Positions 9,175-60,736 of a stretch of DNA of 64,000 bases are shown here, in pieces. Each line of letters opens with the position of its first letter. The first letter of the stretch is position 1. Below the pieces are notes generated by a model, which worked only from the letters and a program-made list of their open reading frames with translations, did no database searches and was not told the origin of the DNA. Position numbers and translations under genes: made by a program. The DNA comes from an uncultured Gemmatimonadales bacterium (GTDB lineage: Bacteria; Gemmatimonadota; Gemmatimonadetes; Gemmatimonadales; Gemmatimonadaceae). The stretch is taken from the NCBI GenBank assembly GCA_963850905.1, contig CAWKMU010000003.1, positions 896,001-960,000 on the forward strand, written 5' to 3'.

Positions 9175-9313
9175 TGGACGTTAGACGCCAGACGCTGGAC
9201 GCTGGAGACAAACCTCGACGCCGGCTTGATGCACCGTGGCCGGCTTTGAGGTTTGTCTCTACCGTCCAGCGTCTACCGTCCAGCGTCTAGCGTCCAGCCG
9301 TCCAGCGTCCAGC
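9175..9313. repeat. Heptamer-armed palindromic element (TAGACGC/TGGACGC arms + core hairpin)
   Basis: (T[A/G]GACGC)n-AGACAAACCTCGACGCCGGC-TTGATGCACCGTG-GCCGGCTTTGAGGTTTGTCTCT-(CGTCCAG/CGTCTA)n. Confidence 0.9.
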
Positions 9314-9316
9314 CCC

Positions 9317-11824
9317 TCACATCCTGAACAGGTAACTGAACTTCACGAAGAAGCTGTCGGCCGACCGGGTGAGCGTCAGGAAATGGAAGGAGACGGGCTC
9401 GGTGAGGTTGTTCCCGTACCCGGCAAAGACGACCGTGCCGGGCACCGGCTGGTAGGCGAACAACCCCTGCACCTCGAACGTGTTCGTCGTCGTCCGCACG
9501 GCTGGCGAGAGGATACCGGTGTTGGGGTCCTCGATGTAAATGGGAAGCTCGGTGCGAGAAGCATCCCGCAGATTGTCCACGTACTGCGCGTCGTACTGCC
9601 CCACGAGGCGGAAGAAAATCGGGCGCGAGATCTGGTACTCGATGTCGAGCCGCGGGATCCGTGTTTGTCCGACCACCGAATGGTCGCTGCGCCGCTGATA
9701 GACCTGCGCGTTGTAGAGGAATTGCGCCCGCAGCTGCGGCGTTGGCCGCCAATCGACGGTGAGCCCCACGTCGTAGATGTTTGCGGATGCCCACTCGAAG
9801 AAGTTCTCGTCGCGGCAGGTGACGTAGTTGATCTTGAAGTCGACGTGCGCGAACGCCGGACTCTGTACGGCAACCGAGCAGTCGGTGTTGGGGATTTGCG
9901 ACGTGCCGACGAAATGCGAGAATGTCGTATCGTGGCCAGAGATGTGGGCGAGATAGTAGTACTGGTAGAGCTGTGGGTCGTAGCCGAAATGCTCGAGGAA
10001 GATCCCGGCGGTCAGCTGCCAGCCGCCGAAAAGCGTGGCAAGCCCCGTGAAATGGAACTTGCGATCCTCGGTCGGGCCGCCGTCGGTGAAATTGCGGTAG
10101 GTCCAGATGTTCACGAAGGTGAAATCGGGCGTGAAGGTCTGGAGAAAGAGACCGGGCCGGAAATAGAACGTGTACCGACTGTCGGCAGTCAGATTCACGA
10201 TGCCCGCGCGGCTCACGAACCCGGCGCCTGGCAGCCACTCGGGGTCGATGCCATTGATGTCGTAGTTCAATCCCAGGCTGCGTCCTGCGCGAATGAAGTG
10301 GGCGTCCCACAGCGGGCCCGCACCGTGCGACGTCGCGGCGGGGAGCGTGTCCGCGATAAACGGCGTGTTGGTACGCTCGACGCTCGCCGCACCCTGCAGC
10401 GCCAGCGAGTAGATCTTGTTCCATGTGAATCGCGTGTCGATGCCCGCGACGCGGTTGAAGGAGCCGCCGTCTTCCTTGTCCGTGAAGGTGAAGCCGATCT
10501 GCGATGCTTCACCGAGATCCGTTAGCGCCCGGAGCACGTTGAACAACGGATGGCCGCCACCGCCTGCGAACGGGTTGCCTTCGTCGTCGAGCGCGCCCAG
10601 ATACGCCACATTGAGGTCGCCGATCTTGCCGGTCAGCTTGGCCGCGCCGATCGGCGCGACGACCTGCCGAGTGTAGATCAGGTTGTTCGGCACGCTGAAC
10701 TGGTCGATGCCGTCGAGGAAGAAGGGCCGCTTCTCCGGATACTGGATGGCTTGGCGTGGGTCGTACGACAGCTGCGTCACATCCGACTCGACTTCCGCGA
10801 AGTCGGGACGGAACGTGCCGTCGAGGACCAGGTTGTTGGTGACGCCATAGCGCACGTTGCCACCCACCTGCGGCCGCTCGACGTTGTACTGCCACCCGGG
10901 CGTGGCGGTCACCGGCGGGTTGCCGAGCGTTTTCTCCGTCACGATCGGGTTGAGATCCAGCACGAGGCCCGCCTGCAGGCCCGTCAGTCCGACCAGCGTG
11001 CCCGACTGCGCGAGGAAGGATGCCGACGCAATACGCGTCGGTACCCACGTATCCATCTCCGCCGAATGCTGCACGTTGCGGACGATATTGATCCCCCAAT
11101 CTTGAGGATCCTTCTGCTGGAACTTCAGGCTGCGAAACGGGATCCGCACCTCGATCTCATAGCCGTACGGCGTCAGCTGCCCCTTCGATTCGTAGACATA
11201 GTCCGCGCTGAGATCCACTGGCGGCGGTCCCGTTGCGGCAACGTTGTAGCCCGTGGCGAGGACGCCTTCCGTGATCGTGCCATCCTCCTGGACCCCAAAT
11301 GGATTGACGCCAAAAAGAATCGCATGCCGCCCGTGGACGAACGGCGTGAGGATGATCTCGACATTGTCATCGCCGTCGATCTGATCTCGGTTGGCGAGCG
11401 TCGCATGCACCCGACCGTGGGCCTCGAACGCACGGATCCCGAAGTAGATCGCCGACGGGCTGTACCAGACCAGCACCTCGGTCGAATCGCTGGCTGGCCG
11501 CCCGTCAATCGGGAAGTACTCCGAGAAACCGGTGAGCAGGGCGGCCTGTTGCCACACCGGCGCGGCCAGCGTGCCGTCGACGGGGATGTCGGCGGCCAGC
11601 CGCGGGATCCGGGCAGCGAGGTGGTTGGCGCGACCGTCGTACACCGCTCCGGTCGCCCGCGCAACCCCAACTGCAGCACCCGGCCCTGGCGGCGGTTCTG
11701 AGCCCGAACCACGGACAGATGTGACGACCGTCGCGGTCGTGTCTGCGGGGACACCCGTTTGCTGGGCAGCGGCGACCGAGGCCGTGGCGAGCGCCGCGGC
11801 CGTCAAGAGAATACGAATAGGCAC
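9317..11824 (-). CDS. CBM9-like + DUF5916 outer-membrane protein
   Basis: Signal peptide from GTG 11824; VDGTL..W, FGVNPFGVQED, EVRIPFRSLKF, RPDFAEVESD, YPEKRPFFLDG, C-terminal FFVKFSYLFR. Confidence 0.85.
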   Translation of the reverse strand: MPIRILLTAAALATASVAAAQQTGVPADTTATVVTSVRGSGSEPPPGPGAAVGVARATGAVYDGRANHLAARIPRLAADIPVDGTLAAPVWQQAALLTGFSEYFPIDGRPASDSTEVLVWYSPSAIYFGIRAFEAHGRVHATLANRDQIDGDDNVEIILTPFVHGRHAILFGVNPFGVQEDGTITEGVLATGYNVAATGPPPVDLSADYVYESKGQLTPYGYEIEVRIPFRSLKFQQKDPQDWGINIVRNVQHSAEMDTWVPTRIASASFLAQSGTLVGLTGLQAGLVLDLNPIVTEKTLGNPPVTATPGWQYNVERPQVGGNVRYGVTNNLVLDGTFRPDFAEVESDVTQLSYDPRQAIQYPEKRPFFLDGIDQFSVPNNLIYTRQVVAPIGAAKLTGKIGDLNVAYLGALDDEGNPFAGGGGHPLFNVLRALTDLGEASQIGFTFTDKEDGGSFNRVAGIDTRFTWNKIYSLALQGAASVERTNTPFIADTLPAATSHGAGPLWDAHFIRAGRSLGLNYDINGIDPEWLPGAGFVSRAGIVNLTADSRYTFYFRPGLFLQTFTPDFTFVNIWTYRNFTDGGPTEDRKFHFTGLATLFGGWQLTAGIFLEHFGYDPQLYQYYYLAHISGHDTTFSHFVGTSQIPNTDCSVAVQSPAFAHVDFKINYVTCRDENFFEWASANIYDVGLTVDWRPTPQLRAQFLYNAQVYQRRSDHSVVGQTRIPRLDIEYQISRPIFFRLVGQYDAQYVDNLRDASRTELPIYIEDPNTGILSPAVRTTTNTFEVQGLFAYQPVPGTVVFAGYGNNLTEPVSFHFLTLTRSADSFFVKFSYLFRM

Positions 11825-12193
11825 GTGGTAACGAAAATACGCGACGACGTCCCGGCGCGCGTGGAACCGTGCGGCGGCAACCGGGTCCCAGCGGTGGACG
11901 GACGGCCCACGATCGGCCCGCCCTTCGCCCGGTCGGCGCCACACATCCCGGCTCTGACCGTCTGGCGCTTTGGATCGTCCCCCTTCGCAACCCGCAGCCT
12001 GGCGGTGCAATCTGCAGGCAAGATGCGCTACCATCATGGCGCAGGTCTTCGAGCTCGTCCGTCGCGCTCGCATCAATCGTGCATAGAGGATGGAGGAGTG
12101 AACGCCGTCGGCCGACGCGACAAAGAGGACCGTCGAGGACCGCGAGCCGACGACCAGAGTGACCAACCAATGAGGAACGAGGAGCAGACACCC

Positions 12194-12817
12194 ATGACAT
12201 CGCGCATCGTGAACGCTCTTGTTGTTGCCGTGTGCACACTCGCTATCGCCAGCCCGGCGCTCGCGCAGGGCATACAACCAGCGCCGCCACCACCCAATGG
12301 GCACATCCTGCCAGGGCAGTGGGCCCTTGATGGGTCCCTCGGATTTTCGGTGCCGGTCGGAGATTTTGGCACAGGCCTCAACACCGGCCTCGATGTGATG
12401 GGAGCGGTCGAATACCGACCGGCTTCGACCGGCAAGATTTACTTCCGCGGCGAGATCGGATACTCGGACTTCGGCTACAGCGGGACGAGTGGCAGCTCGA
12501 GCGTGTGGCGATTCGCGGCCAACGGCCTGTACGACTTCGACACGCACTCGGCGCTACAGGTTTATGGCCTGGCCGGCATCGGCCTCTATCACGTCTCCTC
12601 GACCTTCGACCTCTGCGGCCAGGCGCCGTTTTACTCCTGCTCCGAGTCGAGTACCGGATTCGGCCTCAACTTCGGCGCTGGCATCCGCTATCCCGTCAAT
12701 CCCGTCCAGCTCTTCTTCGAGCTGCGCTATCAGATCGCACTGAGCGCTCCGTTCGGCCTAGGCGACGCGCCGTTTTTCCCCTTCCAGTTCGGCGTGCGGT
12801 ATTTGTTGCCCAGGTAG
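12194..12817 (+). CDS. Outer-membrane beta-barrel protein, paralog-like to 7828-8418
   Basis: GAGGAG RBS, signal peptide ..PALAQ, YGLAGIGLY, GLNFGAGIRY, LFFELRY, FPFQFGVRY. Confidence 0.78.
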   Translation: MTSRIVNALVVAVCTLAIASPALAQGIQPAPPPPNGHILPGQWALDGSLGFSVPVGDFGTGLNTGLDVMGAVEYRPASTGKIYFRGEIGYSDFGYSGTSGSSSVWRFAANGLYDFDTHSALQVYGLAGIGLYHVSSTFDLCGQAPFYSCSESSTGFGLNFGAGIRYPVNPVQLFFELRYQIALSAPFGLGDAPFFPFQFGVRYLLPR

Positions 12818-12884
12818 GCAAACCTGCGGGGCCAGAGATCAGGGGTCGGGGGTCGGGAACGACGACGACCTTCCAACAACGACC

Positions 12885-13022
12885 GGGCGGGCTGAAGCCC
12901 GCCCCTACATGTTGCTGCGGACGCCCGCGACAACAATTCGTCGACGCGCGAAGGGAAACATTGGTCGAGCACTCCCGAATCCGACTATGCACCGACATGT
13001 AGGGGCGGCCTTCAGGCCGCCC
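12885..13022. repeat. GTAG-type REP doublet
   Basis: GGGCGGGCTGAAGCCCGCCCCTAC (12885-12908) and GTAGGGGCGGCCTTCAGGCCGCCC (12999-13022), inverted relative to each other. Confidence 0.8.
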
Positions 13023-13079
13023 ACCGTCGGACCCGGTCGTGCGCCGTTGTCGTTCTCTGGCCCCAGGCCTCTGTAGTTG

Positions 13080-13682
13080 ATGCCGCACCTCGTTCTCCTC
13101 GGCGACTCCGTCTTCGACAACGCGAGCTACGTGGTTGCCGGACGTGCCGCCATCCACGCGTTCGAGGCGCATGCTCCGCCAGGCTGGCGCGTCTCGCTGC
13201 TGGCACAGGATGGCAGTACGATCGACGAGATCGGTCGACAGCTGATGCATCTCCCGAGCGATACGACCCACCTTGCGCTGTCCGCCGGTGGCAATGACGC
13301 GCTCCGGGATGCTGGGATCCTCACGGAGCGGGCCGGGACGGTCGCGGAAGCGCTCTGGAAGGTGGCGCACGTCGCCTCGCGATTCGAGCGCCGGTACGTC
13401 GACATGCTGCGCAAAGTCCGCGCGCGCAAGATGCACGCTGTGGTGTGTACGATCTACAACGGCAACTTCGGCGACACACACTTGCAGCAAATCGCTTCGA
13501 CCGCGCTGTGCGTGTTCAATGACGCCATCATTCGCGCCGCCGGGGCCGCGTCCATGCCCATCGTGGAGTTGCGAACGGTCTGCGACGAGCCGGAAGACTA
13601 CGCGAACGAGATCGAGCCGTCCGGCCGTGGGGGAGAGAAGATTGCCAGGGCAGTGCTACAGGCGCTAGACGCTGGACGCTAG
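13080..13682 (+). CDS. SGNH/GDSL-family hydrolase
   Basis: LLGDSVFDN, SAGGNDAL, NEIEPS motifs. Confidence 0.9.
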   Translation: MPHLVLLGDSVFDNASYVVAGRAAIHAFEAHAPPGWRVSLLAQDGSTIDEIGRQLMHLPSDTTHLALSAGGNDALRDAGILTERAGTVAEALWKVAHVASRFERRYVDMLRKVRARKMHAVVCTIYNGNFGDTHLQQIASTALCVFNDAIIRAAGAASMPIVELRTVCDEPEDYANEIEPSGRGGEKIARAVLQALDAGR

Positions 13683-13772
13683 ACGCTGGAGAAGAAACCT
13701 CGGGGGCGACCTAGATGCGCTGCGGCTGGCCCATGAGGTTTGTTTTTATAGCGTCCAGCGTCTAACGTCCAA
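13666..13772. repeat. Heptamer-armed palindromic element between convergent genes
   Basis: TAGACGCTGGACGCTAGACGCTGG-AGAAGAAACCTC..GGCTGGCCCATGAGGTTTG-GCGTCCAGCGTCTAACGTCCAA; both flanking stop codons lie inside the arms. Confidence 0.9.
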
Positions 13773-14520
13773 CATCCCTCCCCACTCTCGCCGTCACCGC
13801 CCACCGCAGCTCGTGACGGGTCCCGCGATCTCCCCACAGGGGCGCCAGGCTCTCCAGGAACGGCGACACGGGATCGGCGCCGTGGCGCTTGAGATACGCG
13901 GCGCACGATGACCAGGAGCGGAGGTATTGCGCGAGCTCATCGAGCGTCCATAGGCGGACGATATCGATCGGCGGAGCCGGCGTCTCCACAAAGGGAAACG
14001 GGAGCTGCCGCATCGCGGCGCCCACGAGTCCGCGGCCGGCGGGCCAGTACGGGCCGAGCGTGACCAGATTGAAGTGCTGGAGTGCGGCATCGACTGCCCT
14101 GTCATCCGGTATCACCGGGTCGCCATAGCTCCAGACTGCGAGCACACCACGGGGCACGAGCACCCGCTTCGCTTCTGCGTAGAAGCGTTCGCGGTCGAAC
14201 CAGTGCAGCGCCTGCGCGACCGTGACCAGATCGACTGTTGCGCCCGGGAGACCACTGGCTTCGGCCGTCGCCACTCGGTACTCGATTCGCGGATGCGCGC
14301 GCGCATGCGCGAGTTGCTCCGCGCTCGCGTCGGTTGCGATGACCCGCTCGAAGAAGGCCGCCAGCGCCAGCGCCGCTTGCCCGTTGCCGGTAGCGCAGTC
14401 CCATGCGAGCCTGCGTCGCTCAACGATCGACGCGAGGAAGTCGAACAGGGCGGGCGGATAGTCGGGACGGATGGCCGCGTACGTCGCGGCCTGCGCGGAG
14501 AAAAGATCCTGAAACCCCAT
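13762..14520 (-). CDS. Class I SAM-dependent methyltransferase
   Basis: FSAQAATYAAIRPDYP, AWDCATGNGQAA, VTVAQALHWFD. Confidence 0.92.
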   Translation of the reverse strand: MGFQDLFSAQAATYAAIRPDYPPALFDFLASIVERRRLAWDCATGNGQAALALAAFFERVIATDASAEQLAHARAHPRIEYRVATAEASGLPGATVDLVTVAQALHWFDRERFYAEAKRVLVPRGVLAVWSYGDPVIPDDRAVDAALQHFNLVTLGPYWPAGRGLVGAAMRQLPFPFVETPAPPIDIVRLWTLDELAQYLRSWSSCAAYLKRHGADPVSPFLESLAPLWGDRGTRHELRWAVTARVGRDVGR

Positions 14521-14591
14521 CGCGTCGATCTCAACGCTCGGCGAACGGACCGTTCATGGTCAGATCGCCGTCGACCGATGCGGGCCGATCG

Positions 14592-14876
14592 CTACCGAAA
14601 TTTCGGGAAGGCACCTGTCGGTGAATACGTCAGGTCGCGCGTTGCCTCTTCGAACACGCGGAGTCGGAGCATGAGCAGCTCGCACAGCTCCTGGGCATCG
14701 TCCGACAACTCGCGATCGTGATCCTCGCGCACGCGGTCCACCACGGACTCGGCCAGGAAACACAAGTGTCGAAGTGCGTCCGCAGGAACGACAGACCCCG
14801 GAGTTCGACGTCCTGGCAGTCGCACGACCGCCATGTTGCGGTCCTGGTTGAAGACCTCGAGCTCGACCCGCTCCAT
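14592..14876 (-). CDS. Small hypothetical protein (resembles DUF6959 family)
   Basis: AGGAGG RBS; NMAVVRLPGRRTPGSVV motif resembles that family from recall only. Confidence 0.6.
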   Translation of the reverse strand: MERVELEVFNQDRNMAVVRLPGRRTPGSVVPADALRHLCFLAESVVDRVREDHDRELSDDAQELCELLMLRLRVFEEATRDLTYSPTGAFPKFR

Positions 14877-14918
14877 GGTTTGGCCCTCCTACGGCGAGGC
14901 TAGGAAAGGTAACGAGGA

Positions 14919-15070
14919 CCAGGGCTCAGGGATCAGGGACCAGACATCAGGGGTCAGGGGTCAGGGGTGAGGGGTCAGGGACCTACAACAAACACCGAGG
15001 GCCAGCCGCTTTACACCGCGACCGGCCCTGAGTGTTTGTTCCGGACCCCTGATCCCCGATCCCTGATCCC
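14919..15070. repeat. Heptamer-armed palindromic element with TCAGGGG arms
   Basis: (TCAGGGG)n-CAACAAACACCGAGGGCCAGCCGC..GCGACCGGCCCTGAGTGTTTGTT-(CCCCTGA)n. Confidence 0.88.
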
Positions 15071-15079
15071 GCCCTCCAG

Positions 15080-15676
15080 TTACTTGTGCTTATCCCGATA
15101 GATCGCGTGGCTCGTCTTGTTCTGCTCGTGGTTGATCTGGCCCTTCTCCACGCCGGTCAACTTGCCACCGTTAGCGGACCGATCCGCATGGATCTGCTGG
15201 TTGATGTGCTGCTCATGTCCTTCGAGATGGGCGGCTTGGCCAGCTGACAGCTTCCCGCTGCGAATGCCGTTCGCGATTCGGTTCTGCTGATTCAGGCGAC
15301 GTTGCCCAACCTCGTTGTTGCCATAGTGCGCGGTCGCTGCATTGTGCTTATCCGTGTAGATCTCTTTGCTCAAATGGTTCTGCTCGCCATTGAGTTGCGA
15401 GCGGTCGGCCGCCGTGAGGTGGCCATCATCCGCGGCTCGGTCGGCGCGTGCCTGCGAGTTGACCGTGGCCTCCTGGCCCTCGAGGGACTTCGTCTCGCCG
15501 GCCGTCAACTGTCCGCTCTGGACGCCGTTCGCGATGCGATCCTGTTGGTTCTGCTCGCGGTCCTGGTAGGTCCCCGGAGGCGGGGCCTGCGGATCCTGGG
15601 CTGCGCCGCTCGATGGCAGAAAGACGAGACCGACGGTGGCGGCGATCGAGGCCGCGTAGAAGGCTTTCCCAAGCAT
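15080..15676 (-). CDS. Secreted hypothetical protein with two internal helical repeats (NQQxRIANG..SGxL..YxDKH)
   Basis: Signal peptide; two clear tandem repeat units in the translation. Confidence 0.85.
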   Translation of the reverse strand: MLGKAFYAASIAATVGLVFLPSSGAAQDPQAPPPGTYQDREQNQQDRIANGVQSGQLTAGETKSLEGQEATVNSQARADRAADDGHLTAADRSQLNGEQNHLSKEIYTDKHNAATAHYGNNEVGQRRLNQQNRIANGIRSGKLSAGQAAHLEGHEQHINQQIHADRSANGGKLTGVEKGQINHEQNKTSHAIYRDKHK

Positions 15677-15781
15677 GGTACCCCCCGAAGCGATGGACGC
15701 TCAAGACCTCTTCGGTAAGGTGGACGACAGAGCGAGCTGAGCGTTAACGGCGAGACCGAAGAAAGGCCGAATGAGATTCGG

Positions 15782-15842
15782 AGAAACACTGAGGGGCCAG
15801 TGTCGGATCACCGCCGCTGGCCCTCAGTGAGGTTGGTTCCCG
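15782..15842. repeat. Core hairpin of the palindromic element family, without heptamer arms
   Basis: GAAACACTGAGGGGCCAG..CACCGCCGCTGGCCCTCAGTG. Confidence 0.6.
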
Positions 15843-15861
15843 AGTCGTAAATCCCCCGCTC

Positions 15862-16488
15862 TTACCCCTTCGGCGCGCCAGGTCCCCGATTGCCGCCCGG
15901 TGGGGCCATGCGCCACATCATGTTGCGGTGCGCGGCACGATCGAAGTTGCCAGCCGTGTTGAGCTGGTCCGCCGTCAGCACGGCGTTGGCGGCAGCGGTT
16001 GCCCGCCACGTGTTCTCGCGCATGGTCTGCATGATGCCCATGACGGAGTCGCGCTGAGCCGCCGATGGCCGCATCGGAGCGCCGCCCGCGCCAGCCTCGC
16101 CCTGCGCACGCGACCCGTTGCGACGCATGCCGGCGCGCATCGCCATCAGGCGCTCGGCGAGTGGCTTGTTATCAGCGTGCAGCTTGTTGTCGATCGCGAT
16201 GATGTTGTTGACCTGGGCGACGCTCAAGTGCAACGCGGTCTGATGCTCGAGCAATCTGCCGACCGGATCGTGCATCCGGTGCATTCCGCGTCGGTGCATA
16301 CGCATGTTGCGCATGCCCCGTCCACGCATCCCAGGGCCGCCTCGTCCGTCGAATTGCCCGCCCCGACCTCCCCCGCCCCATCGACCCGGGGCGTTCGCAC
16401 CAGGCCCGCCGCCATCCTGGGCCAGCGCTACGCCCGCTGAGAGAGTGACAGCCATACAGAGAACCAGCATTGCGCGAATCGCTTTCAT
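15862..16488 (-). CDS. Periplasmic Spy/CpxP-like (LTxxQ) protein
   Basis: Signal peptide ..VALAQ, Gly/Met/His-rich N-terminus, LHLSVAQ and VLTADQ motifs. Confidence 0.7.
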   Translation of the reverse strand: MKAIRAMLVLCMAVTLSAGVALAQDGGGPGANAPGRWGGGGRGGQFDGRGGPGMRGRGMRNMRMHRRGMHRMHDPVGRLLEHQTALHLSVAQVNNIIAIDNKLHADNKPLAERLMAMRAGMRRNGSRAQGEAGAGGAPMRPSAAQRDSVMGIMQTMRENTWRATAAANAVLTADQLNTAGNFDRAAHRNMMWRMAPPGGNRGPGAPKG

Positions 16489-16632
16489 ACACGTACCCCA
16501 CCGGTGATGTCGGGTCGGCTGAAGGCCGCCCGTTGTCGTGAGCCGCAGCCGGGCACTGCGCCCGGCCGCGGATGATTGACGCACTCCTGTCTTCTGCCAG
16601 TACTACTACACGACTGGTTCCGGCGTTTGGTG

Positions 16633-17295
16633 CTATTGCTTTCGAGCCATCAACACGCCGTCCCCGACCGTCAGCAGCACCGACTCCACCCGGGGATCGT
16701 CACGAACCTTCTGATTGATAGCGCGGATCGCATCGGTATCCGCTTCGTGCGCCGACGGATCGACAACCGCGCCATTCTGCAGGGCATTGTCGAGGAGAAT
16801 GAGGCCACCGACGCGAACGAGCGTCAGACAACTCTCATAATACGCGTCGTACGTTGTCTTGTCGGCGTCGATGAAGGCGAAGTCGAACGACCCGCTGGCC
16901 CCGTCCCGAGTGAGCGCCGCGAGTGTGTCGCGGGCCGGCCCGAGCCGCAGCTCGATGCGGTCCGCGACGCCCGCTTTGGCCCAGTACCGGCGAGCGATAC
17001 TCGTCCACTCTTCGCTCACGTCACATGCGATGAGGCGCCCGTCCGGCGGGAGCGCCGCGGCGACCACGAGGGCGCTGTAGCCGGTGAACGTGCCGATCTC
17101 GAGGCACCGCCGAGCGCCGATCAAATGCACGAGCAGCGCCATGAACGCGCCCTGGTCCGCGCCGATCTGCATCCCGCCGCGCGGCAACTTGGATGTTTCG
17201 GCCCGCAGTGCACGCATTACCGGCGATTCGTGCACCATGTCGACGGCGGTATACCGTTCGATGTCGTCCGGGAGCAGCGAGCGTTTCTGCGTCAT
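16633..17295 (-). CDS. O-methyltransferase (caffeoyl-CoA OMT-like, Methyltransf_3)
   Basis: LEIGTFTGYSAL, FDFAFIDADK, GGLILLDN. Confidence 0.95.
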   Translation of the reverse strand: MTQKRSLLPDDIERYTAVDMVHESPVMRALRAETSKLPRGGMQIGADQGAFMALLVHLIGARRCLEIGTFTGYSALVVAAALPPDGRLIACDVSEEWTSIARRYWAKAGVADRIELRLGPARDTLAALTRDGASGSFDFAFIDADKTTYDAYYESCLTLVRVGGLILLDNALQNGAVVDPSAHEADTDAIRAINQKVRDDPRVESVLLTVGDGVLMARKQ

Positions 17296-17333
17296 GCTTC
17301 CATCTCCCCTTGGCGTTTCTCAGATTATCGCGC

Positions 17334-19073: not shown

Positions 19074-19085
19074 AGGGCGAACGGC

Positions 19086-19193
19086 GGGGTCAGGAATCAG
19101 GGGTCAGGGGTCAGTGAACAAACCGAGAGACCGGTCACGGTGCACCGGAACTGGCCCTCTATGTTTGTTCCCCGGCCCCTGGCCCCTGACCCC
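19086..19193. repeat. Heptamer-armed palindromic element with TCAGGGG arms, between convergent genes
   Basis: GGGGTCAGGAATCAGGGGTCAGGGGTCAG-GAACAAACC..CACGGTGCACC..CTGGCCCTC..TGTTTGTTCC-CCCCTGGCCCCTGACCCC. Confidence 0.88.
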
Positions 19194-19210
19194 GCAGTTC
19201 TAGCCTTCCC

Positions 19211-19588
19211 CTACTTTTTTTGCGAGCCGGGCCCGCCACTGCGTCCGCGATCTTGATCGCTGATATCCTCGTCATCGAGGTCGGGATCGCGGTCCTGCAT
19301 CGAACCCGATCCGCCTTGCGTTCCGCCGCGAGAACCAGCTTGCGATCCGCCGCCCGTTCCACTCATCCCGCCGCTCGACCCACCGGAGCGTCCGCCGCCA
19401 CCGCCAGGCGCCCCACTGCCACCTGAGGATCCACCACTCGACCCACCGGACCCACTCGACCCGCCAGCGCCACCGCTGCGTCCCGGTGTGCCGCCCTGCT
19501 GCCCTGGCTTGGATGCGCCCATTCGGTTCTGTTCGTCCTCGCGCTCACCTTTCCCGCCGGAACCTTGTCCGCTGCGATTGTCAGCCAT
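19211..19588 (-). CDS. Gly/Ser-rich low-complexity small protein (hydrophilin/stress-like)
   Basis: GAGGGAGGGAG RBS before ATG; composition. Confidence 0.7.
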   Translation of the reverse strand: MADNRSGQGSGGKGEREDEQNRMGASKPGQQGGTPGRSGGAGGSSGSGGSSGGSSGGSGAPGGGGGRSGGSSGGMSGTGGGSQAGSRGGTQGGSGSMQDRDPDLDDEDISDQDRGRSGGPGSQKK

Positions 19589-19808
19589 AACTCCCTCCCT
19601 CTCGTCTGCGTCTCATTGATCACGAGTGCCGATGCTCGCCCAGCCCTGCGCTCGCGAGCTGCGCGCGCTGAGAGGTACGCACGCGGTGTGCCCGCCGCGG
19701 CCGCGAGCGCGCGGATCGATTGCGTTGTTTCGCGTACGGTAGCGTGCACGCGACCATGCACGGTCCAGATCCGTTCGCTTGAGCGACTGTGACGCAGCAC
19801 GGCGGGCC

Positions 19809-21250: not shown

Positions 21251-21280
21251 GGGAGGAACGGGTGACGGGAGGGGTAGGCG

Positions 21281-21513
21281 TTGGACGGTAGACGTTGACG
21301 TTAGACGCTGGACGTTAGACGCTGGACGCTGGACGAGCAAATTCCGAGGGCCACTTGCGGTGCACCGAGTCTCGTGCTCGAGTTTTTCGCCAGCGTCCAG
21401 CGTCCAGCGTCCAGCGTCCAGCGTCCAGCGTCCAGCGTCCAGCGTCCAGCGTCCAGCGTCCAGCGTCCAGCGTCCAGCGTCCAGCGTCCAGCGTCCAGCG
21501 TCTAACGTCTAGC
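21281..21513. repeat. Heptamer-armed palindromic element with expanded right arm, (CCAGCGT)x16 at 21390-21501
   Basis: 16 perfect units counted; left arm TAGACGC/TGGACGC; degenerate core with GCGGTGCACC loop. Confidence 0.95.
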
Positions 21514-23298: not shown

Positions 23299-23303
23299 GC
23301 CGC

Positions 23304-24440: not shown

Positions 24441-24690
24441 CGTGGGATCCGTAGCGAGCTGTTGGCCGAACAACGTCACCCTGCTGCCATACAGGACAGA
24501 CGAATTGGCAGGCACACCGCTACGGGCGCCGGGCACCCGACCGCGTCAACGGGCCGAAGCCCATCACTCGACGAGTCGCCAACGACGCGCCGGCTACATC
24601 TGCGCGCGCCTCCTGCGTAGCGCCACGCTACGACGCAGCGACGCGCGAAATGGCGTGTTACGCGGGAGCACGTTCGTGCGTCGGCCGCTC

Positions 24691-25503
24691 ATGCAGTGTT
24701 TGGCGCCGTTCGAGCCCCGCGAAGCCGGCCCCCGTGGGGCTGCCGCGACGAGGCTTTCCTGGTTTGTCATCGCCGTCGCGGTCAGCGTCGGGCTCGGACT
24801 CCTTCTCATCATGAATTGGCGAGAGGTCATCGCCACGCTCCATTGCCACACCGTCCTCCAAGCCGAGCTCGCGATCTGCGCGGGGACGCTCGCTGGATTG
24901 CTTCTCAGCCGGATGGAAGTCAACCCGATCACGCAACGGCGCATCGCCGCGCTTGACCAACTCTATGAGCGCGCGGCCTCGGCTCCTGCACGCGTAGAGC
25001 CTGGCTACACCCACTATCTGCCCTGCGTCGTCCTGTTGACCAATGATCCGTCGGCGAACGTCGTGGCGGAAGTCCGCGCGCGGTCGGAGGGAACCCTGTT
25101 GAAGACTGCCGCCGGTGCGGTCCTCTACTTCGGGCCCAAGGGCGTGCTGCTGTCGAGTCCCCATGACCACCCCGATCCGAGCGGGATCGCCGGCGTCGTC
25201 GAGTCGATTCCTGCCTCGACGCGGTCGCGCCAGCGGACCTGGCTCCGGGCTCGGCCGGTGCCACCCCGTCTTGCGACCACCGATTTGGGGACCGTGCGGG
25301 AGGTGACCGCGGTGTCCGTCGCGCTGCCGCAAGGCCAACTCGCGCGGGTCGCCCGCATGCAGCCCAAGAATGCCATGCTGCTGCGATGGCCCCGGGGTCA
25401 GGCACTCATTGCCGTCCCGTCCATCGGCGACACCCTGCCACGACTGCACCGCTGCTTGGATGAGCTGCGGTGGGCCGCGGACGCTGCGCGTCCGAGAAAG
25501 TAG
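24691..25503 (+). CDS. Hypothetical membrane protein (2 TM)
   Basis: Long ORF filling the gap between called genes, two hydrophobic segments; start uncertain. Confidence 0.6.
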   Translation: MQCLAPFEPREAGPRGAAATRLSWFVIAVAVSVGLGLLLIMNWREVIATLHCHTVLQAELAICAGTLAGLLLSRMEVNPITQRRIAALDQLYERAASAPARVEPGYTHYLPCVVLLTNDPSANVVAEVRARSEGTLLKTAAGAVLYFGPKGVLLSSPHDHPDPSGIAGVVESIPASTRSRQRTWLRARPVPPRLATTDLGTVREVTAVSVALPQGQLARVARMQPKNAMLLRWPRGQALIAVPSIGDTLPRLHRCLDELRWAADAARPRK

Positions 25504-25589
25504 AACCACAGAAAGTAGAAAGTGGACAAACTGCGCTTCGAGACTCGAGGTCCGCCGCTGGTGTTCACCTTCTACTCTCTGTAGGTCTC
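25494..25589. repeat. Palindromic element with AAAGTAG arms and ACAAAC core start
   Basis: GAGAAAGTAGAACCACAGAAAGTAGAAAGTGG-ACAAAC..-CACCTTCTACTCTCTGTAG; the upstream gene stop TAG is in the arm. Confidence 0.7.
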
Positions 25590-25694
25590 GTCCCTCCAGC
25601 GCGAAGCGCCGGCCACGTTGCGGTTCCCTTGCCGACACCGTCCTCAGAGTCGAACGCGATTCGCAGGTCCACTTTTCCGCCCATTGGAGGCCCA

Positions 25695-26051: not shown

Positions 26052-26059
26052 GTAGGAGA

Positions 26060-26167
26060 TAGACGCTAGACGCTCGACGCTGGACGCTAGAAAAAACCTC
26101 GAGGGCCAGCCCAATGCACTGCGGCTGGCCCTCGAGGTTTGTTCCAGCGTCTAACGTCTAACGTCTA
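26060..26167. repeat. Heptamer-armed palindromic element (best-conserved core)
   Basis: TAGACGCTAGACGC..-AAACCTCGAGGGCCAGCC-CAATGCACTGC-GGCTGGCCCTCGAGGTTT-..GCGTCTAACGTCTAACGTCTA. Confidence 0.92.
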
Positions 26168-27204: not shown

Positions 27205-27205
27205 G

Positions 27206-27841: not shown

Positions 27842-27884
27842 GGAAGGAAGGATGAGGGGACGGAGGGTTCGGGGGCAACTAGGG

Positions 27885-27981
27885 GCTGGACGCTGGACAG
27901 AAACTCAAGGCCAGCCACGGTGCATCTAGCTGGCCCCTCGAGGTTTGTCTCTAGCGTCTAGCGTCTAGCGTCCAGCGTCCA
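27885..27981. repeat. Heptamer-armed palindromic element
   Basis: GCTGGACGCTGG-ACAGAAACTCAAGGCCAGCCACGGTGCATCTAGCTGGCCCCTCGAGGTTTGTCTC-(TAGCGTC)x3.. Confidence 0.9.
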
Positions 27982-27987
27982 GGCCCT

Positions 27988-28416: not shown

Positions 28417-28436
28417 GGGGAAAATAGAAGAGTGGT

Positions 28437-30844: not shown

Positions 30845-30941
30845 CGGTCACAATGTACCGTCGATGATGGCACGCACCCACCTCGCGCACGGATCGCTCA
30901 AACTACCGACCTGCGATATGGAGGGCAATCACAGAACGACA

Positions 30942-30970
30942 TGGACGTTCGACGTTGGACGTTGGACGCT
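30942..30970. repeat. Isolated TGGACGT heptamer arm
   Basis: TGGACGTTCGACGTTGGACGTTGGACGCT. Confidence 0.6.
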
Positions 30971-31057
30971 CGCTTCCTGCCGAGACAGACCCGTGAGTGA
31001 CAACAATGGTTTGTGCGCTACAATGCGCGACGGCACCAACGCTGTGGGGCAGCGCAC

Positions 31058-44503: not shown

Positions 44504-44513
44504 GCAGGGAAAA

Positions 44514-44541
44514 TAGACGCTAGACGCTAGACGTTGGACGC
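44514..44541. repeat. Isolated TAGACGC heptamer arm overlapping a stop codon
   Basis: TAGACGCTAGACGCTAGACGTTGGACGC. Confidence 0.75.
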
Positions 44542-45405
44542 CCGTGCTGGGGCCGACGTGCCCGTCAGCTCCTTGCTCATGACCTCGAGGTCATAGCCGT
44601 CCCGGCGAATCCGCAAATCGTAGTACAACAGCGTCACGAACACGGTGTAGACCGGATACACGAACACGTTAATGGTGCCGGTGAGGATGGTGTACGCGGT
44701 CATGAGACCGGGATACTGCACCGTCAGCGCGGCGCCCAGTCCCAACAGCAGGGCGAAGAGCGCGGCGAAGATAAAGAACACCAGTACGAACACCCCCATG
44801 ATGCGCCAGACCGCCCCCTCGGTCAGCGCCATCGACCGCGAGAAGGCATTACCTACGGTCGTGCCCTCCAACACAATCACCATGGGAACGGCGAAAATGC
44901 GCGCATATGTCGAGAGGAACCCCAGGACAACGCCCGCGAGCCCTACGGCGCCTCCCGCGATCGTAGCGGCCCCGCCAACGCGTCCGCCCATCGTCGCGGT
45001 CATACCGGTAGCGAGGAACGCGAACACCATGACCAGGACCAGCATGACGGCGAAAACGGTGATGATCGTGGCGAACGTGCCGCCGAGAATCGGCAGCAGG
45101 CGCGCGAGGACCCGCCGTATCGCGTACAGCACATCGACCCGGTCGTGCACATAGCTGTCCGACACGCCAACCGTTACAGCCGCCGTGCTGAGGAGAGCAA
45201 GAATGGCGACGACGAAGAAGGCAGCGAAGTAGCCGGGCGACGGCATGGTCGCGCGTTGCGGCGCCATCGCCGTTACCTCGAGGACGATCACGGGAATCAG
45301 AAACACGGCCGCGATCGACACGAATTGGAGGTAGTGCCGGCGCAGCAACTGAAACGCCGCATCGACGAGCTCCGTTGCCGTGCGGGGTCGAAGGACAGTC
45401 GGCAT
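44527..45405 (-). CDS. Integral membrane protein (glycerophosphodiester phosphodiesterase membrane-domain-like)
   Basis: LRPR...ELVDAAF.LLR, AFSRSMALT.G, LLYYDLRIRRDGYDLE. Confidence 0.82.
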   Translation of the reverse strand: MPTVLRPRTATELVDAAFQLLRRHYLQFVSIAAVFLIPVIVLEVTAMAPQRATMPSPGYFAAFFVVAILALLSTAAVTVGVSDSYVHDRVDVLYAIRRVLARLLPILGGTFATIITVFAVMLVLVMVFAFLATGMTATMGGRVGGAATIAGGAVGLAGVVLGFLSTYARIFAVPMVIVLEGTTVGNAFSRSMALTEGAVWRIMGVFVLVFFIFAALFALLLGLGAALTVQYPGLMTAYTILTGTINVFVYPVYTVFVTLLYYDLRIRRDGYDLEVMSKELTGTSAPARASNV

Positions 45406-45549: not shown

Positions 45550-46539
45550 TTGCCGCCCTACCGCCCTTCCTGGTGGCTTCCCAATCGACATGCCCGCACG
45601 CTCTGGCCGCGGTTCGTCCGGCGCATCCCCGCAGTGGCTACGCGGACCGAGCAATGGGACACGCCGGACGGCGATGTGGTGGAAGTCCATCGGCTGACCG
45701 CGCACTCGCCCGAGGCGCCGCAGCTAGTCGTGCTCCACGGTCTTGAAGGGACTGCGCGGTCGCACTATGCCAGGGGTGCACTGGCTGAGGCGCGCCGACG
45801 TGGTTGGGGCGCGTACTTGCTGTTGTTCCGCTCGTGTGGCGATGCGCCGAACCGAACGCGCCAATTCTACCACTCGGGTGAGACGGGAGACCTGGGGTTC
45901 GTCGTCGAACGTGTCTTGGCAAATCATCCCCGGGCGCCGATAGTGCTGGTGGGCTACTCACTCGGCGGCAATGTCCTCCTCAAGTGGCTCGGCGAGCAGG
46001 GAGATGCCGCATCACCGCGCATTCGTGGAGCCGCTGCCGTGTCGGTGCCGTTCGATCTGGCGCGCGGATCCCGACACATCCAGCGCGGGTTCGCGCGGGT
46101 CTACCAAGCGCATTTTCTCCGCTCGCTGAAGCGGAAAACCTTCGAGAAGTTGTCGCGGTTTCCCGACATTGCCGACCCCGCACGCGTCGCCGGCGTGCGG
46201 ACATTGTACGATTTCGATGACCTGGTGACCGGGCCGTTGCATGGGTTCGCTGGAGCGGACGACTACTACGCGCGATCGAGCGCGCTGAGATTCCTGTCGC
46301 GAATTCGCGTGCCGACGCTGCTCCTGAGTGCCTTCGACGATCCCTTTCTCCCTGCGGCGGTGCTTGATGAAGTCCGCGCCATTGCAGAGCGGACACCAGC
46401 CCTCATGGTGGAATTCGTCTCGCGGGGCGGCCACGTGGGATTCATCAGCGGTCCGCCGTGGCGGCCGTTCTACTGGGGGGAGTGGGTGGTTGGCGAGTTT
46501 CTGGAGGAGAGTGTGAGAACGATAGACGCTGGACGCTGA
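45550..46539 (+). CDS. YheT-family alpha/beta hydrolase
   Basis: HGLEG, YHSGETGD, GYSLGGN, DDPF, GGHVGF. Confidence 0.92.
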   Translation: MPPYRPSWWLPNRHARTLWPRFVRRIPAVATRTEQWDTPDGDVVEVHRLTAHSPEAPQLVVLHGLEGTARSHYARGALAEARRRGWGAYLLLFRSCGDAPNRTRQFYHSGETGDLGFVVERVLANHPRAPIVLVGYSLGGNVLLKWLGEQGDAASPRIRGAAAVSVPFDLARGSRHIQRGFARVYQAHFLRSLKRKTFEKLSRFPDIADPARVAGVRTLYDFDDLVTGPLHGFAGADDYYARSSALRFLSRIRVPTLLLSAFDDPFLPAAVLDEVRAIAERTPALMVEFVSRGGHVGFISGPPWRPFYWGEWVVGEFLEESVRTIDAGR

Positions 46540-46617
46540 CGCTGGAGACAAACCTTGAGTGCAGGCTAGTGCACAGTGGCAGGACCTGGAGGGTTGTTCT
46601 CCAGCGTCTAGCGTCTA
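46523..46617. repeat. Heptamer-armed palindromic element between convergent genes
   Basis: TAGACGCTGGACGCTGACGCTGG-AGACAAACC..AGTGCACAGTGG..GGTTGTTCT-CCAGCGTCTAGCGTCTA; both stop codons lie in the arms. Confidence 0.88.
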
Positions 46618-57335: not shown

Positions 57336-57348
57336 GACTGTAGTATAG

Positions 57349-57474: not shown

Positions 57475-57546
57475 AGGGTGGGCTGGGACGTTGGAGGGGC
57501 GGGTGACGCATGACGGGCGACGGCAACTACGCCTGCCATTCGGCGG

Positions 57547-57676
57547 GTAGGGGCGACGCAATGCGTCGCCCGTCGTTGGCGAACGGCGAACGCCGCCCGC
57601 GCGTGCATTTTGGGGCGTCCGACGGATTGTGGGTCGCATCGCCGCACCGTAGGGCGACGCACTGCGTCGCCCCTAC
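57547..57676. repeat. GTAG-type REP doublet (inverted pair)
   Basis: GTAGGGGCGACGCAATGCGTCGCCC ... GGGCGACGCACTGCGTCGCCCCTAC. Confidence 0.85.
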
Positions 57677-57782
57677 CCGCCGTTGTTAAGGGTCGTGGCC
57701 GTTTCCACCCGGCCCTATCTAGCGGCTGGGGCCGGGCTGGGGAATCTTTCGCTTCTCACGACAAACACTGGAGCATGAGACC

Positions 57783-59356: not shown

Positions 59357-59404
59357 AGAAGGGCGAGCTGGAGTCGAGGATCGGGAGATGTGAGACATTG
59401 GAGG

Positions 59405-59487
59405 TTAGACGCTGGATAACAAACCTCGGGGCGAGCTAAACGCGCCGTGGCTGGCCTTTTGTCTCCAGCGTCCAACGTCTAACGTCT
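59405..59487. repeat. Heptamer-armed palindromic element
   Basis: TTAGACGCTGG-ATAACAAACCTC..GGCTGGCC..TTTGTCT-CCAGCGTCCAACGTCTAACGTCT. Confidence 0.85.
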
Positions 59488-59499
59488 CATCCGTTGCAC

Positions 59500-60558
59500 T
59501 CACATTTTCATTCCAAGATGGGACATCTGCGGGGCGAAGAATCCGTAGATGATGCCGCCGACATAGAAGACGAGAATGAGCAGCGCGAAGGCCGTGACGA
59601 GGCGGGGGCGGGGTCGACCCTCTCGAGGCCGGTCGATGAGCGGCACGAGAAAGAGAAAACCGAATATCACGATGGGAGCGAAGATCATGCCCGTCATCCC
59701 CATGGTGTTTTCGACGACATAGATCCAGAGGAACGGCCAGTACGGTTTGGTGACTTCGTAGCCCGCCACTGCCGGATACCCGATGTGCGGAGGGAACACG
59801 ACCGCGAGGATGCCGGCGAGTCCCACGAGGAGCAGTGCATAGCCCGTGAGTTTGGGCAAGTGCTCGGAGAAGCGGCTCGTCTTCGGCTGCGGCGAATTGA
59901 TGCCGATCATGCGGATGAGCCAGAAGTGCAGCGCGACGAGCGCGAGCAGCAGGATCGGCAACAAGCTCACGTGCGCGCTGTGCATCCGGCTGATGAGGTT
60001 CGTGCTCTGGGCAAAGTCGGGACTCATGGGTGCGCCGAGCGGCCCCGAGATCTTCGCACCCGCCACAGCGTGCGCCAACGCCTCAGCCCCCTCCTCATCC
60101 CCTCGCAGCACGGTGCCGGTGAAAGCCATGGCGAACAGCACAATCGCGAGGGCGACCCCGGCCCACCAAGTCATCTCGCGCGGTTTGACGTAGCTGCGAC
60201 GCCAGAACACCCAGCACAGGTGAAAGAACACAGTCACCAACACAATGCTGGCGCCCCAGTAGTGGAGACCGCGGATCCAGTACCCCAGCGGCACCTTCGT
60301 CATGATGTACACGACGCTGTCGTGCGCAGCGACCGGATCGGGGTTGTAGAACTGGTCCAGCACGATCCCGGTGGCGATGAGCAGCAGGATACCGGCAAGC
60401 GTGAGCCCGCCCAGCATGTAGGCGAGCCGGTTCGCCTCGGGCGCGATCGGGTAGTCGAGCCCCTCGAGCGCGAGACGCTCCCGCGCTACACTGGAGACCG
60501 CATTGGCCGGCGGCGTGCCGGATGTGCGCGTGCCGACGGGCAGCTCGGCGATGGACAA
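59500..60558 (-). CDS. Cytochrome b/b6-family protein (stand-alone)
   Basis: YMLGGL, IRGLHYWGAS...FHL, KPREMTWWAG, HVSLLP..LH: four heme-ligating His present. Confidence 0.9.
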   Translation of the reverse strand: MSIAELPVGTRTSGTPPANAVSSVARERLALEGLDYPIAPEANRLAYMLGGLTLAGILLLIATGIVLDQFYNPDPVAAHDSVVYIMTKVPLGYWIRGLHYWGASIVLVTVFFHLCWVFWRRSYVKPREMTWWAGVALAIVLFAMAFTGTVLRGDEEGAEALAHAVAGAKISGPLGAPMSPDFAQSTNLISRMHSAHVSLLPILLLALVALHFWLIRMIGINSPQPKTSRFSEHLPKLTGYALLLVGLAGILAVVFPPHIGYPAVAGYEVTKPYWPFLWIYVVENTMGMTGMIFAPIVIFGFLFLVPLIDRPREGRPRPRLVTAFALLILVFYVGGIIYGFFAPQMSHLGMKM

Positions 60559-60629
60559 GGTCGCTCCGGATGAAACGGTGGAGCGGAAAAATCTAGTGTC
60601 GGGCGCTTCTCACACGAGAGGTGGAAACG

Positions 60630-60736
60630 ACCGGGTTCCGGGTTCCGGGTTCCGGGTGGCACAAACCGCTAAGGCCAGTCGCAGCGGTGTGACTGGCCTT
60701 TCGATTTTGTTCCGGAACCCGAGACCCGGAACCCGG
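60630..60736. repeat. Heptamer-armed palindromic element with CCGGGTT arms
   Basis: (CCGGGTT)x3-4-ACAAACC..GGCCAGTCGCAGCGGTGTGACTGGCC..TTTTGTT-CCGGAACCCGAGACCCGGAACCCGG. Confidence 0.88.

Follow-up and report, generated by a model that had tools for sequence, protein, structure and literature searches.

Heptamer-armed palindromic elements with a shared core turn over at gene ends in a genus of Gemmatimonadaceae

Background

Eleven intergenic elements in a 64,000-nt stretch of DNA from an uncultured Gemmatimonadales bacterium (the window; contig CAWKMU010000003.1, positions 896,001 to 960,000) appear to combine one palindromic core with flanking inverted arrays of heptamers that differ between copies. 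This raises the question of what kind of repeat keeps its centre and changes its ends. A preliminary description of the window proposed a non-autonomous mobile or REP-like system in which the core is the recognised site and the arms are written by a templated mechanism. Here we analyse the core, the arms and their orthologous sites in the source genome (G000) and in its relatives.

Results

A core profile was seeded with the 11 window elements and then iterated. In the 4.49-Mb source assembly it found 182 copies (E ≤ 0.05), and the reversed genome gave no match even with the limit set to E ≤ 1. All 11 elements are present where they had been placed and match the profile with E values of 1.8e-11 to 0.03, scores that are circular for these members of the seed alignment; the 171 further copies are independent. 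The shared core is therefore real, but the consensus first written for it is loose, as none of the 11 window elements carries all four of its hexamers exactly. The consensus of the profile reads almost as a perfect palindrome. The loop motif, described as asymmetric, proved to be a weak feature: allowing ≤ 1 mismatch, a single strand carries it in 62 of the 182 cores, both strands in 38 and neither in 82, and its orientation shows no overall bias relative to transcription (15 versus 20; 3 versus 10 in the A class, too few to use). Ten of the 11 window elements (21281 was left out) and both AAAGTAG elements folded much better than shuffled sequences (z -3.4 to -14). No described family in Rfam 15 matched within the window at gathering score.

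The build of arms plus core holds for most of the 11 elements, but 15782 is armless and the core of 59405 is truncated (Table 1). The AAAGTAG elements (4351, 25494) and the GTAACCC element (63436), thought to carry divergent cores, gave no core match and have other interiors instead.

Table 1. Elements and related features of the window, with their counterparts in related genomes
Positions	Feature	Strand	Core	Remarks and orthologous gap
4335..4445	AAAGTAG-armed hairpin, small GGGCGC..GCGCCC palindromes on flanks	.	none	G004: only one small palindrome left
9175..9311	A-class element, T(A/G)GACG(C/T) arms	.	9206-9259	right arm ends 5 nt from stop of minus-strand gene at 9317; G004 and G001: A-class with other core; G002: empty
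13666..13771	A-class element	.	13691-13745	G004: different A-class copy, IS-like insertion inside left arm
14919..15070	TCAGGGG-class element	.	14986-15041	inherited in G004 (core identity 0.96); G001: REP-bearing interior
15781..15839	armless diverged core	.		no arms; related hairpin also in G004, G001, G002
19086..19195	TCAGGGG-class element between convergent genes	.	19116-19170	G001: small hairpin with short arms instead
21281..21511	A-class element	.	21335-21390	right arm of ~17 units, grown by pure tandem repetition
25494..25590	AAAGTAG-armed hairpin	.	none	inherited in G004 and G001
26060..26167	A-class element	.	26090-26144	G004, G001: A-class copies, each with own genome's arm spelling
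27885..27981	A-class element	.	27895-27950	G001: one-unit scar; G002: empty
30941..30972	solitary A-class arm	+		missed by preliminary description
44513..44544	solitary A-class arm	+		missed by preliminary description
46523..46617	A-class element between convergent genes	.	46546-46599 (decayed)	absent in G004, present in G001
57541..57682	GTAG REP doublet	.		same REP family, single copies at 33659 and 38843; G001: A-class core element
59405..59481	A-class element	.	59418-59464 (truncated)	G002: empty
60630..60736	CCGGGTT-armed element	.	60659-60712	G004: TCAGGGG arms and another core
63436..63490	TRACGGG-class arms round small GGGCGC palindrome	.	none	

Copies are diverse. Nearest-neighbour core identity had a median of 0.87 in G000 (≥ 0.95 in 0 of 52) and of 0.90 in a G004 sample (≥ 0.95 in 5 of 48), and no identical pair was found in either comparison, which is odd for recent faithful copying. 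RNAalifold applied to 69 cores gave seven pairs, three with about 20 double changes, and a covariation term of only -0.32; this was not counted for RNA structure because orientation mixing in a near-palindrome can create such double changes. Nor was selection on the hairpins at the RNA level seen, in that the sense strand showed no bias of G-U over A-C (38 versus 28 in cores, 21 versus 26 in arms).

The core is restricted to the genus, being present in 9/9 congeners and in 0/21 other genomes searched. The matches listed number at least about 150 each in G000, G001, G002 and G004 and 3-22 in the other six genus genomes. A matched heptamer arm pair was absent by eye from all ten distant-congener loci viewed, and several distant-congener cores lie 3' of cold-shock-like genes (gene identity by eye, from shared sequence). 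The core is thus armless and low-copy in distant congeners, and abundant and armed in one subclade.

Within G000, gene calls from a simple codon model built for this analysis place 74 of the 182 cores in convergent, 96 in co-directional and 8 in divergent gaps and 4 inside genes (gaps overall 339/1537/523). The outer end of an A-class arm lies -31 to +6 nt from a stop codon in 54 of 70 cases, 23 of which use the arm's own TAG. The window copies lie between protein genes, not in rRNA. This position just after gene 3' ends is that of intrinsic terminators; a terminator scan of positions 9000-28500 flagged only two of eight cores (11 sites versus 9.9 by chance), and in the fold the T-rich GTTTGTT end is paired within the long hairpin. 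Within the genus, the core is an ancient hairpin of gene ends.

The two arms of a copy had been described as reverse complements that change as matched pairs. By class this is so: left and right agree in 80 of the 82 copies typed as a heptamer class on both sides, and among 105 copies periodic on both sides the unit distance is ≤ 1 in 86 (33 with shuffled partners, maximum 48). Letter by letter it is not, since unit-by-unit variant letters agree between the arms at the null rate only, both at position 2 (47/104; null 0.47-0.50) and at position 7 (65/104; within-arm null 0.65). Spelling is specific to the genome: GACGC accounts for 66% of 406 units in G000, GACGT for 93% of 410 in G004 and TCGACGT for 53% of 242 in G001, on genome-wide backgrounds that are alike. 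The A/G letters at position 2 alternate in order (adjacent identity 0.36 and 0.29 versus 0.49 and 0.51), and this alternation in G000 and G004 rejects random per-unit misincorporation; in G001 the sign is reversed, owing to a mixture of arms in two spellings. At two of three clearly inherited A-class sites, one arm was re-spelled round a retained core. Genome-specific spelling, ordered alternation and one-sided re-spelling together support the proposal that arms are copied from shared templates.

Arms are also interchangeable, as had been claimed: one young core-plus-REP interior was found with TCAGGGG, TYTGGGG and TRACGGG arms and once with TAGACG-type arms, and one A/TCAGGGG hybrid element was found. 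From the core sequence the arm class was predicted correctly in 79 of 89 copies (45 when shuffled), and the same arm classes enclose many interiors without a core. Outward A-class remnants adjoin 6 of 94 non-A elements, and remnants in the wrong orientation adjoin one; G-rich remnants outside A arms (1/52, 3/47 and 3/36) were not above control (108/1381).

Sixty-six orthologous sites were resolved in G004, of which 41 hold a core, 13 another element and 12 none (about six of them clean). These empty sites, together with refilled ones, bear out a non-autonomous, mobile-like family. In A-to-A pairs the core is clearly inherited in only 3 of 14. Where the arm class has switched, the core has a median background rank of 0.53 and 0.41 and falls in the top 5% at 3/11 and 0/11 sites; the three are in G004 and fit a retained core, one having a core identity of 0.80 (site 767415). 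The cores of class-switch sites are thus mostly no closer than random, and with the core-free interiors this speaks against the core as a fixed recognised site. At 8 of 46 three-way sites, G004 and G001 are both A-class and G000 is G-rich-armed. Gaps behave as hot spots, with a G004 core in 38 of the 62 that have a G000 core versus 5 of the 328 that have nothing in G000, and REPs and cores occupy the same gaps. Fixation across relatives, named beforehand as a sign against mobility, is true of a minority only: armless and many G-rich-armed cores are inherited (8/13 at identity ≥ 0.82). Elements are lost by deletion, as scars and empty gaps attest, and the same gaps are refilled with other versions within about 10% genome divergence. 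Inspection by eye of 24 filled/short pairs showed no target-site duplication; the ends are variable, and the stop codon changes together with the element.

GTAG REPs are separate from the elements within the window, as first described, but genome-wide 38 of the 182 cores are fused to one, and 144 have no REP within 45 nt. The composite uses the GGACCG-flanked REP that also surrounds a RAYT-like gene at C3:704.4k, and 36 of 94 GGACCG-REPs touch a core. The window was said to hold no cognate enzyme gene; this RAYT-like gene lies 191 kb away and goes with the REP that is fused to those 38 cores. G000 has two RAYT-like genes with REP flanks, whose proteins score 67 and 76 bits, below the NF047646 cut-off of 80. 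The REP variant tracks the local REPtron (92/264 in G000, 5/84 in the G004 sample). Cores were found at none of 27 RAYT-type loci, with one match ~1 kb from the G004 gene. Flanking of a cognate RAYT-like gene was seen for the fused REP (C3:704.4k) and not for core or arms, and the arms are tandem heptamers, not the GTAG-tagged short palindromes of REPs and REPINs.

Genes for a four-helix-bundle protein, which we take to be Avd-like, do lie between such arms. Matching inverted heptamer arrays flank 16 of 50 loci (1.6 in a cross-paired control), including loci in genomes without a PF01797 match (family f3). At locus L073 of G001, A-class arms in G001 spelling, two inverted degenerate 7-mer arrays, form the ends round an intact PF05635/TIGR02436 gene without a core; in G000 the orthologous gap (C3:2817429) also has A-class arms, spelled as in the rest of G000, but they enclose an 87-nt spacer and no gene. 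The suggestion that the same arms enclose an ORF thus holds in G001 but not in G000, where the search for small ORFs between arms found no facing arm pair with an interior of 250-700 nt and longer interiors read as ordinary genes by eye. None of the four-helix-bundle genes found in G000 (82% complete) or G004 (93% complete) is arm-enclosed, and G004 has many young A-class copies despite this. The four PF05635 matches of G000, three of them partial, lie behind, not inside, AAAG(T/G)AG hairpins. Searches gave no GxxExxY gene in 10 genus genomes, no DUF559 in G000 and no PF00078 reverse transcriptase in five genomes (two > 90% complete, three 67-82%). In other genera, visual inspection showed that several GxxExxY genes carry inverted repeats of their own, 9-10 bases long (11 of 12 loci inspected).

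Discussion

We lean, with slightly better than even confidence, towards gene-less heptamer-armed cassettes that have captured a terminator-like hairpin and are replaced mostly as whole units, sometimes by one arm. The two inverted 7-base arrays would be the ends. Their cargo would be whatever lies between them, be it this core, GTAG REPs, an unrelated spacer or a PF05635 gene. A long hairpin 3' of a stop codon would be unstable and would break or be deleted; a different copy from that genome would then be copied over it at the DNA level, usually as a whole unit and sometimes outwards from core or arm on one side only. The gap may stay filled since a 3'-end hairpin would be useful, as a putative terminator or mRNA-stabiliser, and since 7-base units place a stop codon in all frames. 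Among possible catalysts, the RAYT-like HUH protein encoded in the genome is the strongest candidate for the REP-fused subfamily. For plain copies, to which no enzyme was tied in this analysis, we favour host break-repair or recombination, perhaps with help from the four-helix-bundle protein; a simultaneous switch of both arms is not accounted for by homologous repair.

A RAYT (HUH tyrosine transposase) could instead cut and paste the hairpins as single-stranded DNA, as for REPINs, with arms and core as passengers or relaxed substrates. The REP-flanked RAYT-like genes, the fused cores, the GGACCG-REPs that touch cores, the REP variant that follows its REPtron and the gaps common to REPs and cores all suit this, and the available text on REPINs has them inserting in or next to REPINs (PMC3116915). 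We nevertheless judge it rather unlikely, as most cores have no REP nearby, the 27 RAYT-type loci have no core, no GTAG-hairpin tag marks the arm class that is most active in G004, and heptamer arms flank four-helix-bundle genes in genomes where PF01797 is unmatched. The model of the preliminary description, a fixed core with dedicated arm writing (telomerase-like or Avd/RT-like), draws on one-sided re-spelling, the interior with four arm classes, site 767415, genome-specific spelling and the lack of identical copies. It appears improbable, given that cores are mostly exchanged together with arms and predict their class, that arms occur without cores, that PF00078 is absent from the five genomes searched and that position-2 letters alternate and are not random.

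Ordinary bidirectional terminators, with slippage-born repeats and quasi-palindrome correction but no copying between loci, would account for the strong 3'-end bias, the armless inherited cores and the pure 17-unit expansion at 21281; a copy's own core halves are also slightly more complementary than cross-copy halves (0.725 versus 0.673, G-rich-armed). This account is highly improbable and already largely refuted by the filled/empty pairs: arms are not mirrored, orthologous gaps hold different elements or are cleanly empty, spelling shifts in parallel at dozens of loci, and new full elements stand in gaps empty here. We also entertain, as a doubtful extension of the cassette reading, a dedicated overwriting system in which the four-helix-bundle protein and a host or HUH enzyme would recognise hairpins just 3' of stop codons and swap them for fresh but imprecise copies of a master arm-plus-cargo template.

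Work on STRR/SDR repeats of Nostoc reportedly exists, and our literature search returned nothing on it. The 23S rRNA intervening sequence with an ORF (S23p/PF05635/TIGR02436), an insert of the 23S rRNA gene that RNase III removes, is alike in that terminal inverted repeats enclose its four-helix-bundle gene (structure 2gsc, XCC0516) and that, in Coxiella, tandem heptamers precede it; the available part of that paper (PMC4990558) treats a single element and no dispersed family. Copies here are, in contrast, gene-less, intergenic, in hundreds and outside rRNA, although in G001 one such gene does lie between A arms. Intergenic arrays of degenerate heptamers, 2-6 units long and near stop codons, partly in inverted pairs, are described in accessible sections for Xanthomonas (GGGAATC) and Nostoc (GGGGAYT) (PMC4692102) and for Beggiatoaceae (TAACTGA, with stops noted in all frames; PMC4679880). 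Those repeats are described as stable, 83% being kept between two Xanthomonas species, and read as G-quadruplex or regulatory motifs, whereas here one core is common to several unit classes that have nothing to do with each other, and replacement is quick. REPs and REPINs with RAYT, as far as the available text goes, share the inverted doublet as a long hairpin, the place downstream of genes, excision as a unit and nesting in palindromes, and REP-plus-hairpin fusions are described in Pseudomonas (PMC3116915, PMC3733652); our copies differ in their tandem-heptamer arms, far greater diversity and plain copies that do not flank a RAYT gene. MITEs, in the part of PMC3733652 that defines them, are likewise short and non-coding, with terminal inverted repeats and filled and empty sites, but the elements here have imprecise ends and, by eye, no target duplication; no transposase shares their ends, and no copies are identical. 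Literature searches found no paper on the modular family or its turnover; supplements such as the repeat tables of PMC3733652 could hold related repeats.

Conclusions

The turnover data are what is added here, and turnover at gene-end gaps speaks against reading the repeats as purely structural (G-quadruplex) or as static regulatory features. Two old loose ends are addressed, the 'IVS protein' family and the heptamer repeats of intergenic DNA. The genus offers close genomes in which other arm classes are seen to refill the same gaps within about 10% divergence, arm spelling changes across the whole genome, and one site carries a four-helix-bundle gene in one species where the sister species has a spacer with no gene. 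A descriptive puzzle thereby becomes testable questions: which enzyme acts, whether copying is by whole unit or by arm, and why at stop codons. If the overwriting system were true, each lineage would re-spell gene ends by the hundred in its own manner, and bacterial repeats would have a way to spread that differs from both IS/MITE transposition and REPIN movement and that would explain the intergenic heptamer repeats as well as the IVS-protein family.

An abundant core hairpin with interchangeable heptamer arms

All 11 core hairpins (~55 nt) that the preliminary description had placed in the window were recovered there. A profile built from these 11 and refined over three iterations was used to search the 4.49-Mb, 82%-complete source assembly (G000), where it identified 182 cores at E ≤ 0.05 and 203 at E ≤ 1; the reversed genome, used as a control with the same profile, yielded none. 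Twelve window hairpins folded with z-scores of -3.4 to -14 relative to shuffles, and the suggested Rfam search gave no match in the window.

The arms, inverted tandem heptamer arrays that flank the core or another interior, belong to the classes T(A/G)GACG(C/T) (A class), TCAGGGG/TYTGGGG (G-rich), TRACGGG, CCGGGTT and AAAG(T/G)AG. Both arms could be typed in 82 of the 182 cores, with left and right classes agreeing in 80; a GTAG REP lies on one side of 38 cores, and the others have one typed arm or none. The arms had been thought to mirror each other letter by letter, but their variant positions agreed only at the null level (47/104 and 65/104). The asymmetric loop motif was borne out as one-sided in 62 of the 182 cores and not in the remainder, and three elements regarded as divergent-core relatives turned out to have no core (table). 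Facing arm pairs enclose cores, REP doublets, small palindromes or unique spacers, and none in G000 encloses 250-700 nt. The REP-fused interior was found with four arm classes, and 16 of the 20 strongly typed cases have matching arms. For 79 of 89 copies, against a mean of 45 after shuffling, arm class could be predicted from the core sequence, so that arms and core mostly move as one.

Based on in-house gene calls, 74 cores are located in convergent, 96 in co-directional and 8 in divergent gaps, and 4 inside genes, against a background of 339, 1537 and 523 such gaps of at least 60 nt. A-class arms start -31 to +6 nt from a stop codon in 54 of 70 cases, and the arm's own TAG serves as the gene's stop in 23. 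Core density in G000 peaks at 0.5-1.0 Mb (56/164). On the + strand of contigs C3 and C4, arm arrays are more common in right-arm than in left-arm orientation (on C3, 176 vs 127, 139 vs 109 and 129 vs 77).

A covariance model of the core matched nine of nine congeners and none of 21 genomes from elsewhere in the family and order, including the unpublished G016. Among the matches listed, four genomes had at least ~150 (both strands counted) and six had 3-22 weak ones. Ten loci from these six, inspected by eye, lacked a matched heptamer arm pair; several follow cold-shock-like genes, a position shared by an armless core in G000. We infer that the core began as an old hairpin at gene ends, later captured and amplified in one subclade; alternatively, the weak matches in distant congeners may be relics of an older wave.

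Positions of individual elements and loci in the window or on contig C3 of G000
Feature	Position	Observation
Proposed divergent-core relatives	window 4351, 25494, 63436	no core
Elements with small palindromes	window 4335-4445, 63436-63490	AAAGTAG element at 4335-4445, like many orthologues, bracketed by a small GGGCGC..GCGCCC palindrome; at 63436-63490, one small GGGCGC palindrome inside TRACGGG-class arms
Expanded arm	window 21390-21511	one arm expanded purely to ~17 units; not seen in G004
Core element	window 13666	G004 orthologue: 1.2-kb IS-like element with transposase-like ORF inside A-class arms; apparent TTAG duplication
Core element	C3:1023630	G004 orthologue: 1.2-kb IS-like element with transposase-like ORF inside A-class arms
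Gap orthologous to G004 locus L022	C3:1086227	empty
tRNA-Ile region (L001-L004)	C3:13,000-73,000	seven copies of tRNA-Ile 3' half before intact gene at 72745
RAYT-like gene L219	C3:704.4k (704,400-705,000)	
RAYT-like gene L005	C3:875k	

Turnover at orthologous gaps

The elements turn over between related genomes, as was observed by comparing G000 with three relatives over 800 kb (G004, 89% identity), 640 kb (G001, 81%) and 160 kb (G002, 74%). Of the G000 core sites, 66 could be resolved in G004: a core is present at 41 of them, an AAAGTAG element at 6, a REP at 3 and arms lacking a core at 4; 12 scored as empty, which by eye comprised about six clean sites, one diverged core and about four truncated extractions. 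The core was clearly inherited in 3 of 14 A-to-A pairs and more often, at 8 of 13 sites, among non-A cores. Where the class had switched to A, the core ranked like a random copy (median background rank 0.53 in G004 and 0.41 in G001) and fell within the top 5% of the background at 3 of 11 such sites in G004. Of 46 three-way sites, 8 carry the A class in both relatives but a G-rich class in G000. At several sites, a fused one-unit scar marks where an element was lost. At G004 locus L022, a full A-class element precedes the remaining right half, with its arm, of an older core: insertion into an old element caught midway. Collapse between two GGGCGC..GCGCCC palindromes was seen to leave a single small hairpin within older arms, and one-sided arm expansions like that in the window occur at other G004 sites.

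Gaps with a G000 core held one in 38 of 62 cases in G004, vs 5 of 328 gaps with nothing in G000, and in 25 of 51 vs 5 of 226 in G001, many of the empty gaps being tight operon junctions. For convergent gaps alone the contrast holds in G004 (13/23 vs 1/32) and is weaker in G001 (11/19 vs 4/15).

The spelling of A-class arms differs by genome, with GACGC in 66% of 406 units in G000, GACGT in 93% of 410 in G004 and TCGACGT in 53% of 242 in G001; word frequencies across the whole sequence are similar between the genomes. In two of the three cases where an A-class core was inherited, the spelling of one arm changed and the core was kept. No identical core pairs were found.

Associated genes

Matching inverted heptamer arrays occur at 16 of 50 PF05635 loci examined among 104 listed (cross-paired control 1.6, maximum 7). 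These genes encode four-helix-bundle proteins, a family that we take to be Avd-like. G001 has an intact TIGR02436 gene (related to structure 2gsc) that lies, without a core, between A-class arms in the G001 spelling, and the orthologous G000 gap has A-class arms in its own spelling around an 87-nt spacer. The four PF05635 matches of G000 are outside arms and partly truncated. In the tRNA-Ile region, an AAAG(T/G)AG hairpin follows five of the seven partial copies, succeeded in three of the five by a four-helix-bundle gene, whole or truncated; the region resembles a series of stacked islands, all integrated at tRNA-Ile and each with a hairpin and a gene start.

Two RAYT-like genes in G000, both scoring just below the NF047646 cut-off, each have their own, different GTAG REP (~264 and ~102 copies). 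In G001, G002, G004 and G009, related genes occupy other sites and have lineage-specific REP flanks. GxxExxY genes were not found in the genus; in other genera (L191-L202) they often have their own inverted 9-10-base repeat arrays, which by eye resemble a packaging parallel to the heptamer cassettes.

Discussion

No description of this modular family was found in the literature searched. Heptamer arms are common to the G000 elements, the Coxiella IVS (PMC4990558) and repeats of Xanthomonas, Nostoc and Beggiatoaceae, the last three reported as stable (PMC4692102, PMC4679880). REPINs are partly alike in working (PMC3116915, PMC3733652), but the arms of the G000 elements are not of the GTAG type. 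The core-fused REP variant is that around the L219 gene, with 36 of 94 copies touching a core; that RAYT moves all the elements is nevertheless unlikely.

Position 2 of neighbouring units alternates A/G in G000 and G004, which suggests an ordered template rather than random errors or single-unit slippage. That a templated process writes the arms around a fixed core is rather improbable; cores and arms mostly move together, and no reverse transcriptase was found in five genomes. Terminators with local slippage are a very improbable explanation.

On balance, we lean slightly towards heptamer-armed cassettes with the core as cargo, lost, overwritten by DNA-level copying and kept by the usefulness of a 3' hairpin. 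Against this reading stand the absence, from both of the most active genomes, of a four-helix-bundle gene enclosed by arms, the lack of identical donors and of G-U bias, the weak terminator signal, and two-sided class switches that plain recombination does not explain. Under the cassette reading, the arms would be the ends of a cassette class, and long hairpins behind stop codons would be lost and then overwritten, other copies serving as the source of either the entire unit or a single side. The gap would stay filled because a 3' hairpin is useful there.
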